DNA from: a virus
Lineage: Duplodnaviria; Heunggongvirae; Uroviricota; Caudoviricetes
Strand: one strand, 5' to 3'
IMG/VR virus record: IMGVR_UViG_3300029581_000002
DNA length: 64,000 nt
A model generated the notes under the pieces. It was not told the DNA's origin, made no database searches, and saw only the letters and a list, made by a program, of their open reading frames with translations. Of this stretch, positions 12,906 through 61,757 are shown piece after piece. The stretch's first letter is position 1; the number at the start of each line of letters is the position of its first letter. The position numbers and the translations under genes were made by a program.

Positions 12906-13378
12906 AATTTCTCTTTCTCTACTCTAAATTGACAACATAGTTTCTGCAACTCGAGTATGACGGGTTCTAAGGTACTAACACCCTTAACCAACACTGCTCG
13001 TTGGTCTACCGTCCTTCTAGCTAAATGAGATTGGACGCTGGAAACAGCATCTTCATATCTCTTCTTAATAAGGTCTCTATTCTCGAAATACTTGGGAATT
13101 TTACCATGCAGATATATTAAAGCATCTAATGCCTTAATAAGTTCCTTATGGCTCATAGAAGTAGATATTCTGTCATAAATAAATACATATCTATCAACTC
13201 CGTCTGGAATGATATTTATATATTTATCAGTTTCAGTTCCTTCTCTTCCTACATGGTCTGCTAACCTCACAGTAGCAGAGAATCCGTTCAATGTGTAGTA
13301 CTCCGAATCTCCCTTATAATTAGTAGAAGTAAATCCCTTCCTCTTCAGCCATGCTTTTAGTTTGCTCAACCCTCTCAT
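12902..13378 (-). CDS. hypothetical protein
   Basis: 158-aa ORF. Confidence 0.4.
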   Translation of the reverse strand: MRGLSKLKAWLKRKGFTSTNYKGDSEYYTLNGFSATVRLADHVGREGTETDKYINIIPDGVDRYVFIYDRISTSMSHKELIKALDALIYLHGKIPKYFENRDLIKKRYEDAVSSVQSHLARRTVDQRAVLVKGVSTLEPVILELQKLCCQFRVEKEKL

Positions 13379-13625
13379 CTTGTTTAATCTTCTTTTCCAC
13401 CTTTCGAAATATCAAGTCTTCGTCAAGTGGACATCTACACTCCATAGTACAGTCACTGGCTTTAAAGTAACAGCCAAAGCACGCGCAACCACTGTCAACG
13501 ATTTCTACCGGACTGCCGTTTACAGTGATAAGGTCTCCTACCTGTAAAATGGGTATTAATTCATTGTCTTCGTACTTAAATTTCTGCATATCTAAAGTTA
13601 AAAAAGAAGGGCCAAACCCAGACAA
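13320..13625 (-). CDS. hypothetical Cys-rich protein
   Basis: 101 aa with a CACFGCYF...C..C.C cluster. Confidence 0.35.
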   Translation of the reverse strand: MSGFGPSFLTLDMQKFKYEDNELIPILQVGDLITVNGSPVEIVDSGCACFGCYFKASDCTMECRCPLDEDLIFRKVEKKIKQDERVEQTKSMAEEEGIYFY

Positions 13626-13837
13626 TCACTAGAGTAGACCTTACCTCATTAGAAGTAAAGAATAATCTAATAACTAATCTGAATTTGACCCTAAACGGCA
13701 GTACGAATATCGTTCTGCGCGATTAGCACTACATTAAATATAACGTAGCCTAAAGTCCGTTATCATAGATGATAACAATAATACCAAGGATTGGCATTAG
13801 GTGTGTTGCTAGGAGCAACGAAGAAGAGCCTACATCC

Positions 13838-13846
13838 CCCCCCCAG
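13838..13846. repeat. C9 homopolymer (G9 on the transcribed minus strand) in the intergenic/promoter region
   Basis: Direct count of 9 consecutive C in an AT-rich background. It lies upstream of the minus-strand gene starting at 13625. Confidence 0.9.
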
Positions 13847-13897: not shown

Positions 13898-14266
13898 CTA
13901 TTCAAAGTAGTCTGGGAACTTATCTTTTAATATTTCAGATATGTCCACGCCAGTCAGTTCAGCCATAGATAATTCTTCCAACATTGCGTCTTCAGAATCG
14001 TCCACACTACCGTCAGCGCTATCAATAAGATTGAGCAGTAATTGAGCTTTCTCATCAGTCAGCCCGTCTTGCGCCCATTTACTTACTACTTCTGCAAAGA
14101 ATTCATCGAACTCATAAGAAGTTTGCTCGTCTTCATCAGCGATTGCATTCTTCTTGGCAAACAGTTCTTTGATGTCTTCATCTGTAATAGTTCCGGCTTT
14201 ATCATAAGCCGCGTTCAATGACTCTATAAGAGAGTCTTGTTCATCGAATGTCATTGTTGTTAACAA
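13898..14266 (-). CDS. highly acidic small protein (possible DNA-mimic/anti-restriction type)
   Basis: 122 aa that is extremely rich in D/E. Confidence 0.4.
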   Translation of the reverse strand: MLTTMTFDEQDSLIESLNAAYDKAGTITDEDIKELFAKKNAIADEDEQTSYEFDEFFAEVVSKWAQDGLTDEKAQLLLNLIDSADGSVDDSEDAMLEELSMAELTGVDISEILKDKFPDYFE

Positions 14267-29078: not shown

Positions 29079-30146
29079 CTAAACTAACTTATCGAATATC
29101 ATGGGCTGTATCGACATCCATAAATTTGCTAGCATTTCTCGCTCTGCGTCAGATGCTTCATCCCAATGTGATACGTACAATTTCTCCGTTCGTTCATTCC
29201 TATAAGGAACCTTAAATGAACGGTTAATGCGTACACTGTGTGCGAATAGGTCTTTGTCGAAATCAATAGCCCTAAGCGTCTTCTGGAAATCGTTGAACTT
29301 ATTATTAGGGTCATCGACATCCCTAACAGACATTCCAGAAGGAAACGGGCCGTTACCATGCCTTGTTATATAAGGACGAGTTACATAACAAGTTTGGATT
29401 TCTTTACGTATACCTGCTTTCCGCAACAGCTCGTAAGCGTTTTGTGAAGTTGTATTAGACGGAGTACAATAAGGCATTATGCCGAATCTTTGGTCAAGCA
29501 ATATTCCCTGTGAACCTTCAAACACTAGGTTATCATAATTCAACAAGCAATCTTCATTAACCGTACCTGTATGTAAGAAATAAGCATGTGCTAACCTACA
29601 CCAGTTGTCTAGGTCTATCGAAGGATATTTACTAGACATGTTGTAATAGTTATCCACTATGGCATTTAGTTTCTCACGCAGTATGTAAGGATTCATACAA
29701 TCTACAACTGTTAAGCTGTATCCTGCCTTAACCCGGTCCAAACAAGCTTTAAACCCTGTACCTACAGTACCATGTCGTAAGTTCTCTTCGTTATTAACTT
29801 GGGAATAGACATCGAAGGGAATTACAACTTGGCAGTGAGGGTGATACTGAACAATGGGATGAACTCCCATTTTAGCTAAGTCTGCACCCTCCAACATAGA
29901 GGTAATTGGGTCTACAGTACAGTATTCGGACCAGTACGTCGGCACTCCAAGTAAGGTTCCGCTGCCAAAGTTACTAAAGGTGTGCATCATGTCTCCATGC
30001 TTTACAGTATGTCCTACTTGATGTCCACCACTAAACCTGACTACTAACACAGACTCTCGCTTACCTATGTACTTGTTACATAAGTTGTGAACTGTCTGTC
30101 CCTTACCTTCGTCTCCAAAGAATGTTCCTAATACAATACTAATCAT
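29079..30146 (-). CDS. adenylosuccinate synthetase family protein (PurA/PurZ-like, short form)
   Basis: VLGTFFGDEGKGQ (PurA P-loop GDEGKGK), FSGGHQVGHT (YQGGHNAGHT) and FEGSQGILLD...MPYCTPSNTT (FEGAQGTLLD...YPYVTSSNTT). At 355 aa it is about 75 aa shorter than cellular PurA, as phage PurZ enzymes are. Confidence 0.65.
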   Translation of the reverse strand: MISIVLGTFFGDEGKGQTVHNLCNKYIGKRESVLVVRFSGGHQVGHTVKHGDMMHTFSNFGSGTLLGVPTYWSEYCTVDPITSMLEGADLAKMGVHPIVQYHPHCQVVIPFDVYSQVNNEENLRHGTVGTGFKACLDRVKAGYSLTVVDCMNPYILREKLNAIVDNYYNMSSKYPSIDLDNWCRLAHAYFLHTGTVNEDCLLNYDNLVFEGSQGILLDQRFGIMPYCTPSNTTSQNAYELLRKAGIRKEIQTCYVTRPYITRHGNGPFPSGMSVRDVDDPNNKFNDFQKTLRAIDFDKDLFAHSVRINRSFKVPYRNERTEKLYVSHWDEASDAEREMLANLWMSIQPMIFDKLV

Positions 30147-54559: not shown

Positions 54560-54691
54560 TAATATATATTAATAATTATATTACCATTTGGTAATATTGA
54601 AATATATAACTAATTTTGTATTGTCAAATTAAATAATAATATATTTGCGAACTTAAATCAGAATTATTAACAATAACTAAAATTTATACCA

Positions 54692-55734: not shown

Positions 55735-55971
55735 ATGACAGGAGAAGAAATTATAGTAACATTTAAAGAGCCTTGGTATAATGATTATACCAGACGATTA
55801 TACACTCAATTATCTGAACAAATGATTAGAGAAGAGATTGAGAGAGTGCATAAAGAACCAATCATTACTAATACTGCATTTGATATAGCAGTAGACAAGG
55901 CTTTCTTAGAGTTACTGCATGACAACAAGGATTTAATTAATATCACAGAACGATACAAGAACCATGAGTAA
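55735..55971 (+). CDS. hypothetical protein
   Basis: The ORF track starts at a TTG (55702). The first ATG is at 55735 (MTGEEIIV..). Confidence 0.35.
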   Translation: MTGEEIIVTFKEPWYNDYTRRLYTQLSEQMIREEIERVHKEPIITNTAFDIAVDKAFLELLHDNKDLINITERYKNHE

Positions 55972-56026
55972 AATAGCAACAGAATTAGAAGCTAAGACTA
56001 TGGGGGGGGACTCTCTCGGTAATTGA
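55964..56026 (+). CDS. leader ORF MSKIATELEAKTMGGDSLGN ending just after the G8 tract; in -1 register to the downstream ORF
   Basis: Manual translation. Deleting one G from G8 (56002..56009) fuses it in frame to the ORF that is open from 55989 to 56609. Confidence 0.4.
   Translation: MSKIATELEAKTMGGDSLGN
56002..56009 (+). repeat. G8 homopolymer at the leader/main-ORF junction
   Basis: Direct count of eight G. Confidence 0.9.
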
Positions 56027-56177
56027 TAATAAGTGCTGTACTAAAGCTAGAGCACTTGAATTAGGATGTCAGATTAAAAGTGGATTTAGTTATACTGATA
56101 ATCAGTTAGTAGAGTTAGAAGGTATAGAGGCAGCTATAACTGCTCCAAATGTAATCCTTCATTATGGTTGGCAGGAT

Positions 56178-56609
56178 ATGCCAATTAATAATATACAGCA
56201 ATTTAGAGTACGTTTCTCATTTGTTAATGAGAGTTCAGTGAATGGAGAGCCGTTTAAGTATTCTGACAATACTATGTACTTTACAATTACTCCAAGATTA
56301 GAGCAAGGAGAACGAACGTACACTAAGACTTTAGCAAATCCTCTTAAATATTACTTAGAGAAATTAGCACCTTCTAACCAAGACCCATATAATACACCTG
56401 TTTGGATACGTTTTGAGGGATACATGATGCTTAAGCAAGTGTCTCAAATTACATTAGCAGTAGATTCTCAATCTGAGAATTGGGCAGAAGGAGTAACATT
56501 TCCTTCATCTGGAAAGTGGGTCAAAATGAATAATTCTGGTAGAGTACTTAGATTTACTGGTGGGGAAACAGACCTAAACATAGAACTGTATACAGCATCA
56601 GCGCAATGA
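56178..56609 (+). CDS. hypothetical protein; frame open upstream to 55989 with no ATG, likely the main body of a G-tract-controlled gene
   Basis: 143 aa from the first ATG. The upstream in-frame 63 codons carry no start codon. Confidence 0.45.
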   Translation: MPINNIQQFRVRFSFVNESSVNGEPFKYSDNTMYFTITPRLEQGERTYTKTLANPLKYYLEKLAPSNQDPYNTPVWIRFEGYMMLKQVSQITLAVDSQSENWAEGVTFPSSGKWVKMNNSGRVLRFTGGETDLNIELYTASAQ

Positions 56610-60340: not shown

Positions 60341-60625
60341 CTTTACATACTAAATAAAAGAAGCAACCCGTTTTACATCTGGGTTGCCAGTGGATGCTAG
60401 GCACAAAGCCTAAGATAGTTTTTACGTCTTCGTCTTGGTGGTCTACACCAGTGCGCTCTGACGTATTCCCACTTACCGAGACGGAATCTCCAGTAAGCAT
60501 GGACAAAGACGGTCTTTGCTATCTCCATAATTAACACCTCCTTTCTATGATTTAATTCAATCTCGGAAGTTGAGGTGCAATTATGGTGATGCAAATATAG
60601 TAATTAAATTAATATAACAATAAAT

Positions 60626-60727
60626 ATGAGTAAAATAGTAACACAAGACAAACTGAATGAATTAACAGGTAAGAATATAGATTATGGGAAGGGGGGGGTA
60701 TTGTCCTCATTACCAAACCATAGTTAG
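60626..60727 (+). CDS. leader ORF MSKIVTQDKLNELTGKNIDYGKGG.. running through the G8 tract, out of frame with the main ORF
   Basis: Manual translation. One G fewer fuses it to the 60684 ORF after ..YGKGG. Confidence 0.4.
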   Translation: MSKIVTQDKLNELTGKNIDYGKGGVLSSLPNHS

Positions 60728-61697
60728 TCTCTGGGGTAGCGTAGTTGCGTCTAGTAACTACCAGCCAAATCAATTAGTTAAAGAAGAAGATATAGTTGTA
60801 GACAAAGACCTATTCCTTATTAATGCGGAGACAGGTAGTTTATACTTTGCTGGCGGTGGTACCTATGCTCAAATTCCAGCTATAGACGGCCATGAGGATT
60901 TTATGTACATAGCTGGAGGAGGTGAAGCAATTGGAGCATTGTCTATGCTTGGAGGATTGTATGTAGTTAATCAGTCTACCAAACAGTGGGAATTAAAATA
61001 CAAAGATACTGTAAGAGCTTATGGTTATGCTCACTTGGCTAGATTCTCTACTGGCTGGATATTTTATAAGGGAGCAGGAGGAGACGGTAAGAACTATGTT
61101 ATTATAGTATATGATAATGGCACGACAAAGGAGTTAAGCGTCGTAAGTAATGTCCACAGCATATCAACTGGGCCTTATAATTACTGCTGCGTTGGAGTAC
61201 TATATCAGGGAGGGGCTAGGATATATACCTTCTTAGCTACGTCTGCGCCAGATTCTCTTACTTATTATACTCCGGGAATGTTTACACCAAATGCAGTAAT
61301 ACAGGGGGATTATGCTTCACCAAGAGGTATAGTATATAGCACTACTAGTAATTACACATACTTTAGTGCTAATCCAACTGGAACTCAATGGACTGCTGCA
61401 ACCACTAGACCACAACTAACTGCTTTGACTAAAGGTTTGTATGCAAATGCCGAGTTTATGCTTATAGGAGGTAACATGAAGAGCGTGTCTACAGACGGAG
61501 GTCAGAATTGGACTACCTCTACACTAGGCGCATACACTCTTACTGATTTAATATATGTAGATTCAAATTGGTATGCAATTGGTTCGAATGGAACTAAAAG
61601 ACTCCTATTGCAGAATACAGCTTCTACATTTGACCAAAGTAATAAAATACTTGACTTGCCTGACTATTCTAGACAAGTAATTAAGATTAACGTATAA
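60684..61697 (+). CDS. G/T/S/Y/N-rich beta-type protein, candidate tail fibre/receptor-binding protein
   Basis: 337 aa with the composition and GGG/TT/SS runs typical of fibre proteins. The ATG at 60684 is in frame only in the G8 state. The gene is followed by a bidirectional terminator. Confidence 0.45.
   Translation: MGRGGYCPHYQTIVSLWGSVVASSNYQPNQLVKEEDIVVDKDLFLINAETGSLYFAGGGTYAQIPAIDGHEDFMYIAGGGEAIGALSMLGGLYVVNQSTKQWELKYKDTVRAYGYAHLARFSTGWIFYKGAGGDGKNYVIIVYDNGTTKELSVVSNVHSISTGPYNYCCVGVLYQGGARIYTFLATSAPDSLTYYTPGMFTPNAVIQGDYASPRGIVYSTTSNYTYFSANPTGTQWTAATTRPQLTALTKGLYANAEFMLIGGNMKSVSTDGGQNWTTSTLGAYTLTDLIYVDSNWYAIGSNGTKRLLLQNTASTFDQSNKILDLPDYSRQVIKINV
60691..60698 (+). repeat. G8 homopolymer inside the start region of the fibre-like gene
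   Basis: Direct count of eight G. Confidence 0.9.
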
Positions 61698-61713
61698 TAA
61701 GTTAATATAATAA

Positions 61714-61757
61714 AAGCCCGAACTTAGTTTAATTACTAGGCTCGGGCTTGTTTTATT
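61714..61757. terminator. bidirectional rho-independent terminator between convergent genes
   Basis: aagcccga ... tcgggctt stem followed by gttttatt. The reverse strand also has a T-rich tail. Confidence 0.65.

Follow-up and report, generated by a model that had tools for sequence, protein, structure and literature searches.

A length-variable poly-G tract in the 5' coding region of a phage accessory gene: a probable contingency locus in an uncultivated human-gut phage

Within codons 22-24 of its long ORF, an accessory gene carried by an uncultivated phage of the human gut, roughly 180 kb in size, contains a run of eight G residues that is probably a hypermutable contingency tract of the slipped-strand type. 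The gene lies near the end of the window, the whole stretch of 64,000 nucleotides that was analysed and to which all coordinates refer. At the same site in 53 related human-gut contigs the tract ranges from G7 to G11 and also occurs as interrupted tracts and expansions of an A run, which bears out the length-variable switch put forward in the original prediction. It is proposed that G residues are gained or lost by slipped-strand mispairing as the phage DNA is replicated; the length variation is observed, and the mechanism behind it is what we infer. A tract of G7 or G10 would give a full-length protein of 356 or 357 aa, composed of an N-terminal module of about 58 aa and a seven-bladed Asp-box propeller, and G6 or G9 would turn the gene off with no product. 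G8 or G11 would cut off the leader and leave at most a protein without its first 19 residues, and this only in genomes that possess the ATG at 60684.

Reading frames at the tract and the two start codons

The features of the locus are collected in Table 1. In silico, G7 yields 356 aa from ATG 60626 and the frame of ATG 60684 ends after 12 codons, whereas G8, the state found in the window, yields a leader ORF of 33 aa and 337 aa from ATG 60684. With G10 the product is 357 aa from ATG 60626 and with G11 it is 338 aa from ATG 60684; for G6 and G9 the longest product from either start is at most 32 aa, which is the off state. This arithmetic agrees with the earlier reading that the 337-aa protein is made without the leader in the G8 state and that the leader fuses in frame in the G7 state, and the amino acid composition (G 11.3%, T 9.8%, Y 8.3% and S 7.7%) fits its description of the protein as rich in these four residues. 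The proposed toggle between two N-termini stands as far as the frame switch is concerned, which is real, but it overlooked a third state, the off state at G6 and G9.

Table 1. Features of the poly-G locus and its paralogue in the window
Feature	Coordinates	Strand	Description
Paralogue g1	55964..56609	+	Leader MSKIATELEAKTMGG, G8 (56002-56009), then a 199-aa body in another frame
Leader	60626..60690	+	ATG 60626 and codons for MSKIVTQDKLNELTGKNIDYGK; opening part of the conserved N-terminal module
Leader ORF of 33 aa, G8 state	60626..60727	+	Ends at TAG 60725-60727; overlaps the internal ATG
Internal ATG	60684..60686	+	Formed by Tyr TAT and a following G; opens the 337-aa frame in the G8/G11 state
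ORF of 337 aa	60684..61697	+	Gene body as in the window; stop TAA 61695-61697
G8 homopolymer, hypermutable tract	60691..60698	+	Gly-Gly(-Gly) when in frame
NQLVKEEDI motif	60768..60794	+	End of the shared N-terminal module
Predicted seven-bladed beta-propeller domain	60807..61694	+	Residues 61-354 of the long form
Asp-box (BNR) motif SVSTDGGQNW	61482..61511	+	Read directly from the sequence
G+C-rich hairpin followed by a T run	61712..61754		Between convergent genes; likely bidirectional terminator

In 300 shuffles of the window, G runs of at least eight were expected 0.03 times and were observed twice, and C runs of at least eight were expected 0.20 times and observed once, as a C9. For A and T runs of at least seven the expectations were 8.9 and 17.7, and neither occurs. 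In the window's long ORFs GGG is used least of all Gly codons (6.4%), all six of the other Gly-Gly-Gly tripeptides encoded there use GGT, GGA or GGC, and the tract persists in relatives down to about 80% identity. The excess of runs and the codon usage rule out a chance origin of the G8 tract. In simple-sequence-repeat contingency loci a homopolymer or short repeat of mutable length, at least 7-8 nt, lies in the promoter or near the 5' end of the coding sequence, persists in spite of chance and codon bias, and shifts the frame whenever its length changes; the G8 at 60691-60698, inside the coding sequence, has these properties, and here G7/G10 give the long frame, G8/G11 the short one and G6/G9 neither.

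When relatives are compared in pairs, the leader frame shows 862 synonymous and 695 non-synonymous codon differences, as compared with 411/1183 and 206/1482 in the other two frames of the same segment. The leader is kept in two orthologues of 56% and 43% identity (P0123 and P0126), both of which lack the Gly run, and it is also common to the paralogues. By these comparisons the leader is coding and is the ancestral N-terminus, the long form being the ancestral protein. An equivalent of ATG 60684 is present in 25 of 51 relatives and the remainder have TAC and no ATG. This start is a by-product of a Tyr TAT codon preceding GGG, and a start for the short form is not conserved.

The state of the internal ATG bears on whether the locus is a programmed two-isoform toggle, in which G7/G10 would give the long protein and G8/G11 a functional short form that differs in its N-terminus and in its role or location. 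We consider this unlikely. Replacement of the ATG by TAC in about half of the relatives has occurred despite a preference for TAT, which accounts for 74.6% of Tyr codons genome-wide, and the short form would lose 19 residues from the start of a module that orthologues and paralogues alike conserve. Ribosomes that have started at ATG 60626 pass over the internal ATG and terminate 40 nt further on, and their passage should impede initiation at that site; G9, the commonest out-of-frame state, yields no product from either start. The toggle does gain from the frame arithmetic, which holds, and from the position of the internal ATG within an unusually unstructured AT-rich stretch (z = +1.99). Of the 9 loci in the +1 frame, 8 moreover have the ATG, versus 17 of 42 others (Fisher p = 0.011, uncorrected for relatedness), and short forms make up 7 of 15 among the listed members of the window's own 90% cluster.

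Tract length among related contigs

All of the evidence for length variation comes from comparison between assemblies. Of the 53 contigs, 24 have the gene in frame, 9 have it at +1 and 20 at +2, which is off; this is a mild enrichment of in-frame tracts over a uniform split (chi-square p = 0.03, for sequences that are not independent). Besides the uninterrupted tracts, the variants G6AG3, G6TGG, A6G9 and G9T were found, and in-frame alleles with shortened tracts arise through synonymous GGG-to-GGA or AAG-to-AAA changes. Among uninterrupted tracts the off state (G6/G9) is the most frequent. The body ORF is intact, with at least 299 codons, in about 47 of the 53 contigs, so the frame breaks are confined to about 10 nt. 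The tract differs in 14 of 21 pairs with at least 98.5% identity over 957 flanking nt, in some of them by 2-3 nt (G7/G9, G8/G11 and G8/G10), and G8 states are interleaved with G10/G7 states among proteins that are 5-16 residues apart. Clusters at 90% identity likewise mix protein lengths of 363/364, 343/344, 330/331 and 250-275 aa. Length differences among close genomes with stable flanks, a further property of contingency loci, are thus seen here.

Homopolymer sequencing or assembly error, under which the true tract would be G7 or G10 and the gene an ordinary intact ORF, is extremely improbable. Poly-G is difficult on some platforms and error-prone on some Illumina chemistries, many of the related contigs have a low coverage of 2-6x, and the commonest out-of-frame length, G9, is G10 minus one base. 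However, the exact 337-aa protein is present on at least five contigs of 54-188 kb from several samples and independent assemblies, so its G8 allele is no one-off read error; a search of the collection for exact matches to this allele with G7, G10 or G11 in place of G8 retrieved none of these hypothetical versions, only G8 being on record. Error would also have to account for near-identical sequences whose tracts are 2-3 G apart and for a contig with about 19x coverage (L045) that is still out of frame. The substitutions and A-run expansions at the tract cannot be length miscalls, and four other sites vary likewise while the rest of the gene is stable.

The near uniformity of the natural frames (24/9/20) and the intact body ORF of out-of-frame genomes would also suit a recoding mechanism, in which the correct frame is regained at the G run when RNA polymerase stutters or the ribosome shifts; the frame of the DNA would then matter little, and most tract lengths would still give full-length protein. 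The run itself, G GGG GGG, formally matches the X XXY YYZ slippery pattern. Of the elements of a programmed -1/+1 frameshift site, this slippery run is present but a conserved tract length and a stimulatory RNA structure 5-9 nt downstream are absent; the fold of 60699-60790 is no better than that of shuffled sequences (z = -0.84), and a ribosomal frameshift signal was rejected because of this missing structure. Bacterial sequences on which ribosomes or RNA polymerase slip efficiently are runs of A or U, and G:C-rich hybrids slip poorly. G8 and G9 would in addition require different shifts, +1 and -1, and recoding leaves the length variation in the DNA and the synonymously interrupted in-frame alleles unexplained. 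We regard recoding as very unlikely and retain a contingency tract acting at the DNA level as the probable explanation.

The predicted propeller, its paralogues and their possible role

The gene had been described as fibre-like. The structure model instead shows a globular seven-bladed beta-propeller with one Asp-box behind the N-terminal module of about 58 aa; such modelling had been suggested as a way to recognize a fibre or carbohydrate-binding fold, and it does not support a fibre. Phage tail fibres and tailspikes are characterized by a fibre or beta-helix architecture, a family match and a place in the tail module, and the protein has none of these, there being no Pfam or PHROG tail-fibre match and the gene not lying in a recognisable tail module. 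The S-x-D-x-G-x-x-W motif, in the single canonical copy SVSTDGGQNW, and the predicted propeller fold are those of BNR/Asp-box beta-propellers, a group with sialidase-like, Ycf48/PSII_BNR and DUF6242 members, some of them in phage tail proteins; unlike these, the protein is below every Pfam threshold and has only one clear Asp-box. Residues 217-336 have weak sequence links to BNR, PSII_BNR and DUF6242 propeller proteins, and one of the weakly linked DUF6242/PSII_BNR proteins (P0161) has a Sipho_tail N-terminus. Beta-propellers are functionally generic. The family is narrow, with 61 cluster representatives at E <=0.001 and two full-length distant relatives. No family match was found for the protein, its paralogues or the small neighbours in Pfam, PHROGs or the PDB sequence profile, a tblastn search of the protein against 50,697 INPHARED phage records gave no match, and a scan of GTDB genomes gave no relative.

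The paralogue g1 shares the N-terminal module and has a switch of the same type. Its tract ranges from G7 to G11 among relatives, and both 215-aa ON forms and truncated gene calls are found in the database. The window contains three G/C runs of at least eight, and each related locus has 1-5 of them at four recurrent sites. At least four genes of the lineage (the target, g1, g4 and g5) carry poly-G, the sister tracts ranging from G7 to G11 and always with G on the coding strand. The module is common to the target, g1 and the tract-less g3; g4 and g5 have only its C-x-T-K core, with the tract placed after the core. On/off counts are 23/38 for the target, 11/25 for g1, 12/14 for g4, 11/13 for g5 and 28/6 for the tract-less g3, and the on/off combination of the poly-G genes varies from genome to genome. 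Since each of these genes goes on or off independently, mixed combinations of expression would arise in the phage population, which we take as a form of bet-hedging.

The module also appears to move between bodies. The motif NQLVKEEDI is common to g1, g3 and distant orthologues and is the recombination joint in one chimera (P0348). A profile of the N-terminal module (A3) found, among 5.8 billion proteins, only fragments of 36-107 aa and another chimera (P0197). Two natural chimeras join the parts of the target and g1, one with the target leader, G10 and the g1 body (L076) and the other with the g1 module and the target propeller (L077), and among relatives the cassette occurs in both orientations relative to its flanks, with swapped modules. 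The paralogue's body is a beta-sandwich, as against the propeller of the target, and g1 combines a near-invariant N-module with a variable C-domain. One could imagine from this a dedicated diversity system in which the poly-G is a three-state switch (full-length, leader-less and off) and at the same time a joint for recombination between leader and body, in a set of genes with a conserved N-terminal region; the two together would vary combinatorially what this highly prevalent phage displays or expresses. The job as a joint is suggested because of the two chimeras and the two orientations of the cassette, and we think the system as a whole distinctly unlikely.

With the tract taken as a contingency switch, the propeller and the paralogue's beta-sandwich may serve for binding, with the common N-terminal module as their docking part, and by analogy alone the most likely role of the proteins would be to interact variably with the surface of the host cell or with the gut environment. 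This putative binding role is proposed because of the propeller fold, the constant N-terminus and variable C-terminus of g1, and the natural module swaps. It is possible, if doubtful, that the same switching serves another function, the products being intracellular accessory proteins that act against host defence or are sensed by it, with an OFF subpopulation that escapes, as proposed for T2 agt. The contingency loci of T2/T4 reportedly concern host-defence evasion (bioRxiv 10.1101/2025.10.21.683753). The gene considered here is located among small early-type unknown genes and DNA-metabolism genes and not in a tail module, and it is frequently off in nature and hence dispensable, all of which suits an intracellular protein. 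Propeller and beta-sandwich bodies behind a shared, swappable N-module resemble a docking-plus-binding architecture instead, and a conserved N-module with a variable C-domain, as in g1, is typical of host-recognition proteins.

Known switching systems and the genomic setting

Among bacterial contingency loci are the poly-G/C tracts of Campylobacter, Neisseria, Haemophilus and Helicobacter, which lie in surface genes and restriction-modification genes. The likeness extends to a homopolymer near the 5' end of the coding sequence, slipped-strand on/off switching, many independent loci giving combinatorial 'phasotypes', and alleles locked in frame by synonymous interruption of the tract. Unlike those, the tracts described here are virus-borne and copied by the phage replisome, and because a phage has no cellular lineage to inherit a phase, diversity would be generated per burst. 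Invertible or shufflable tail-fibre cassettes (the Mu G segment, the P1 C segment and shufflons) also combine a constant N-terminal part with alternative C-terminal bodies, and they are like the present cassette in its two orientations and swapped modules among relatives; in contrast to them, neither an invertase gene nor a conserved crossover site was found here, and the rearrangements are seen between genomes.

The closest viral parallel concerns poly-G tracts of Campylobacter phages (Fletchervirus), which lead to phase-variable expression of receptor-binding proteins (Sorensen 2021, Cell Rep 35:109214, as relayed in PMC10579305 and PMC12823448). As far as those accounts go, the two systems share several in-CDS poly-G tracts whose length shifts the frame, with phase-variable expression and mixed progeny, and a diversification of host interaction has been proposed for both. 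They differ in that the present phage and its proteins are unrelated (no tblastn match in the 50,697 phage records), that the tracts here fall within the first 25-45 codons, and that the internal ATG gives a possible truncated third state. Multiple poly-G tracts are common to both. The receptor-binding role and the Bacteroidota host that the original prediction assumed are putative here; for the former, the propeller and the modular N-terminus stand beside the absence of a tail-fibre match and of a tail-module context.

Coliphages, T2/T4 among them, have also been reported to carry contingency loci (Gomez, Barrick, Waters, bioRxiv 10.1101/2025.10.21.683753). These are reportedly in-gene simple-sequence repeats with reversible frameshifts by polymerase slippage and bet-hedging, as proposed here; that work reportedly rests on phage-stock sequencing and selection, whereas the present evidence is comparative only. 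The long G runs stand in a genome with no other homopolymer longer than six, a sign that a few loci are dedicated to the purpose, unlike T2/T4. Earlier records of poly-G phase variation in phage genes come from cultured Campylobacter phages and, of late, from T-even phages. What seems to be the same poly-G device is now found in a new and very common uncultivated gut phage; the mechanism itself is already known. Thousands of human-gut assemblies contain the lineage (clusters of 546, 1289 and 2164 members), at least four of its genes switch independently of one another, and the genomes found in nature are fixed in differing on/off combinations. If confirmed at read level, this would be a natural system for studying how gut phages hedge against changing hosts. 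For annotation it counsels caution, as 'frameshifted' or 5'-truncated genes in such phages may be switch states and not errors or pseudogenes.

The neighbourhood of the gene consists of small unknown, replication, nuclease and lysis-type genes, among them a giant protein with a glucosaminidase domain, a nuclease and an exonuclease, and has no recognisable tail module. Two weak and mutually contradictory clues to the host were set aside. A Bacteroidota-type promoter pattern has 5 occurrences versus 1.9 expected, and Lachnospiraceae-like LytTR genes at the end of one contig are probably an assembly chimera or a widespread mobile element. Site-specific inversion through the 15-nt inverted repeats at 60598-60612 and 61724-61738 was also rejected, as the breakpoints match poorly and the repeats may be due to chance; 18 inverted-repeat pairs of this type occur in 6 kb of AT-rich DNA. 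The hairpin between the convergent genes is not listed by a simple terminator scan because its loop exceeds the length that the scan allows.

Tract length and reading frame

The target gene begins with a short leader, and its sequence at the tract reads ...GAT TAT GGG AAG GGG GGG G|TA TTG TCC..., in which an internal ATG is formed by the Tyr codon TAT and the next G. When the region was rebuilt in silico with 5 to 11 G's, G7 and G10 fused the first ATG to the long frame (356 and 357 aa), G8 and G11 left a leader ORF of 33 and 34 aa with the long frame opening at the internal ATG (337 and 338 aa), and G6 and G9 placed both starts out of the long frame. The original prediction, which described a G7/G8 toggle between two N-termini, had the frame arithmetic of both lengths right; the off state at G6 and G9 makes the switch one of three positions, not two.

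Coordinates of the principal features
Feature	Position	Strand	Basis or remark
g1, the first G8 switch: leader MSKIATELEAKTMGG, G8 tract (56002-56009) and, in another frame, a 199-aa body	55964-56609	plus
g3	L001 15130-15672	minus	usually without a long tract
First start ATG of target	60626	plus	read directly
Internal ATG	60684	plus	read directly
G8 run of target	60691-60698	plus	read directly
Asp-box SVSTDGGQNW (textbook motif)	61482-61511	plus	read directly
TAA stop of target	61695-61697	plus	read directly
Convergent giant protein, 1246-1247 aa	61763-63988; full length in L001 11145-14888	minus	glucosaminidase domain

The existence of the switch itself was confirmed among relatives. A search of a 5.8-billion-protein collection with the fused protein returned 340 matches, almost all of them in human-gut assemblies; the contigs reach 175-190 kb, and some clusters have 546 to 2164 members. 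At the N-terminus these proteins have GKGY (G4), GKGGY (G7), GKGGGY (G10, the commonest) or GKGGGGY (G13), and others begin MGRGGY (G8) or MGRGGGY (G11). Seventy-five related loci were taken from IMG/VR and metagenome contigs, and 53 of them include the 5' end of the target; read from the first ATG, 24 are in frame, 9 at +1 and 20 at +2 (off). The site carries uninterrupted runs of G7, G8, G9, G10 and G11, interrupted tracts (G6AG3, G4AG4, G6TGG, G7AG), expanded A runs ahead of the G run (A6G9, A7G10) and compensating changes (G9T, G8TG). Past the tract, about 47 of the 53 loci keep an open frame of at least 299 codons, so the frame breaks cluster in about 10 of about 1000 nt; with the body intact in this way, pseudogene decay is an unlikely reading.

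Of 21 pairs with 98.5% identity or more across 957 nt of flanking sequence, 14 differ in the tract, some by 2-3 G's, and G8, G7 and G10 are interleaved among the proteins nearest the window's allele (5-16 differences per 332 residues). Clusters at 90% identity combine lengths of 363/364, 343/344, 330/331 and 250-275 aa, the shortest members being calls in off genomes that begin at a downstream start. Set against sequence divergence, switching looks fast in these comparisons. At least five contigs, 54-188 kb long and drawn from several assemblies, encode the exact 337-aa protein, so G8 is not a private error of the window; exact G7, G10 and G11 versions of this allele were looked up in the protein collection and none was found. 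Plain sequencing error, which may affect individual low-coverage contigs, is unlikely to be the whole story given these five contigs and the near-identical pairs that differ by several G's.

The most economical reading is that slipped-strand mispairing at a contingency tract changes the G count; selection would retain the run, which occasional synonymous changes would shorten with the gene still in frame. It is improbable that ribosomal or transcriptional recoding across the run operates instead, as this would leave the length variation in the DNA unexplained and no downstream stimulatory structure was found (folding z = -0.84). The initiation region is unstructured (z = +1.99).

Long form, short form and the sister switches

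In its own frame the 60-nt leader shows 862 synonymous versus 695 non-synonymous codon differences in pairwise comparisons of relatives, against 411/1183 and 206/1482 in the other two frames. Two full-length distant orthologues, P0123 (56% identical) and P0126 (43% identical), lack the Gly run and start MSNKIATEEY... and MSNRIATEQY..., alignable to the target leader. The synonymous excess and the retention of the leader in both orthologues argue that the long form is the ancestral state and that the G run was acquired afterwards in this lineage. The internal ATG is not conserved: the Tyr codon at its site is TAT in 25 relatives and TAC in 26, although 74.6% of the genome's Tyr codons are TAT. 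The ATG is present in 8 of 9 loci at +1 versus 17 of 42 others, an excess that is only a hint (Fisher p = 0.011, from related sequences). A conserved module would lose its first 19 residues in the short form, and ribosomes starting at the first ATG would overrun its start and end at TAG 60725-60727. We therefore read G8 as loss of the leader, perhaps with a weakly made truncated protein, and not as a designed second isoform; what stands of the predicted toggle is a real length-variable switch, one of several, whereas its short isoform is doubtful.

The module spans the first ~58 residues (M-S-x-K-I-[AV]-T-[EQ] ... C-x-T-K ... G ... Y-x-x-N-Q-L-V-[KE]-E-x-[DG]-I) and is found on unrelated bodies, those of g1 and g3 among them. 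In g1, G7 or G10 would join leader and body, and relatives carry G7 to G11; its body is modelled as a beta-sandwich, and its homologues have a nearly invariant N-module with C-domain identity down to 39-50%. In the tandem genes g4 and g5 the C-x-T-K motif is followed by a poly-G run. Across all loci, four sites account for every recurrent G run of at least 7; the G's are on the coding strand in each case, and all four sites are polymorphic from G7 to G11. Translation from the leader gives on/off counts of 23/38 for the target, 11/25 for g1, 12/14 for g4 and 11/13 for g5, with 28/6 for the tract-less g3. The combinations vary between genomes, and the set, judged by sequence, looks like a multi-locus 'phasome'.

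Two natural chimeras were seen, each on one contig. At the g1 site, L076 1067-1390 has a target-type leader followed by G10 and the body of g1; in L077 2092-3171 (P0348) the g1 N-module is joined after NQLVELEGIEAAIT to the target propeller, and the ~4.6 kb between the joined parts is deleted.

The window (G+C 37.5%) contains only three G/C runs of at least 8, the two G8 tracts and a C9 at 13836-13844, and shuffled windows give 0.03 G and 0.20 C runs of that length. A and T runs of at least 7 number zero, with ~9 and ~18 expected from shuffles, and the genome seems purged of slippage-prone runs, poly-G sites excepted. GGG is the rarest Gly codon (6.4%) in the long ORFs, where the six other Gly-Gly-Gly tripeptides all use GGT, GGA or GGC; a homopolymer-avoiding genome thus retains a few long G runs, in its least-used codon. 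A/T runs of at least 7 are almost absent from 40 related loci as well. The C9, a G9 on the coding minus strand, lies in the ~270 nt that separate two minus-strand genes (13898-14266 and 13320-13625), is crossed by short ORFs only (<70 aa), and may belong to a small switched ORF or be a promoter or spacer tract.

Predicted fold and known systems

The target protein gave no match in Pfam, PHROG or PDB sequence searches. The long form (P0004) was modelled by AlphaFold2 with 19 homologues (mean pLDDT 66.6, pTM 0.66); the model has two short helices at low confidence in residues 1-60 and an all-beta region of four-stranded blades in residues 61-354. Foldseek against viral models returned phage BNR, DUF6242 and Kelch entries and one 'short tail fiber' entry, and an exhaustive HMMER search weakly linked residues 217-336 to large BNR, PSII_BNR and DUF6242 proteins, one with a Sipho_tail N-terminus. 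Together with the Asp-box, these results indicate that the product, previously called fibre-like, is a predicted propeller and not a fibre. Propellers are generic scaffolds for binding or enzymes, so a receptor-binding role is possible.

Hypermutable poly-G tracts are described as controlling phase-variable receptor-binding protein expression in Campylobacter phages (Sorensen 2021, as cited in PMC10579305 and PMC12823448), and a 2025 preprint (10.1101/2025.10.21.683753) describes contingency loci in T2, T4 and other phages. The target works in the same way, although the Campylobacter phage genes are unrelated to it in sequence; the present case differs in concerning a prevalent uncultivated gut phage, in having tracts within the first 25-45 codons of genes and in a possible truncated third state. 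No report of poly-G switching in gut metagenomic phages was found in the literature searched, which was covered in part. We consider the case of moderate to high interest, since this is a common phage and public reads allow a test.

Gene neighbourhood and rearrangements

Small unknown genes form a plus-strand block at 54.7-61.7 kb, and the target closes it. The convergent giant protein carries a glucosaminidase (peptidoglycan hydrolase) domain and, C-terminally, a weak match to a kinase-like 'polyvalent protein'. Replication genes and 28 tRNA genes are found in the remainder of the window. This setting fits an accessory host-interaction or anti-defence gene as well as an adsorption protein. 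At the head of the block, the Bacteroidota promoter pattern TTTG-N17-21-TAnnTTTG is matched twice, with overlap (54587-54647, plus strand), and these motifs may drive the block; the window has 5 matches versus 1.9 expected. In L001 a gene for an 80-aa hydrophobic protein lies directly upstream of the giant gene.

L001 was compared with L002, L038 and L059 over window ~55.9-61.8 kb. Relative to both conserved flanks, the target cassette is oriented oppositely in L002 and L001, and in L038 the block from g1 to the small genes is inverted and located behind the target. The cassette shows ~88% identity versus 95-98% in the flanks. Inverted repeats of 15 nt (TAGTAATTAAATTAA, 93% complementary) flank the target at 60598-60612 and 61724-61738, the right arm within the loop of a likely terminator hairpin; they could be chance in AT-rich DNA, with 18 such pairs per 6 kb.

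In L078 5403-7014 (a 188-kb contig) the giant gene is cut at 402 aa and joined to LytTR response-regulator and histidine-kinase genes, which match a Roseburia MAG at 99% identity and occur widely in Lachnospiraceae; the junction is probably an assembly chimera or mobile element and is unusable as host evidence. The tRNA genes are spread over 14.7-48.3 kb, and one with anticodon CTA (40783-40855, minus strand; 'Pyl' in ARAGORN) is by its anticodon an amber suppressor and hints at TAG recoding in part of the genome; TAG still ends 6 of 42 long ORFs in the window. A 355-aa protein (29079-30146, minus strand) matches PHROG 1211, a PurZ-type adenylosuccinate synthetase family (E = 1.6e-46), a match compatible with either PurZ or PurA, and the phage may have 2-aminoadenine (Z) DNA.
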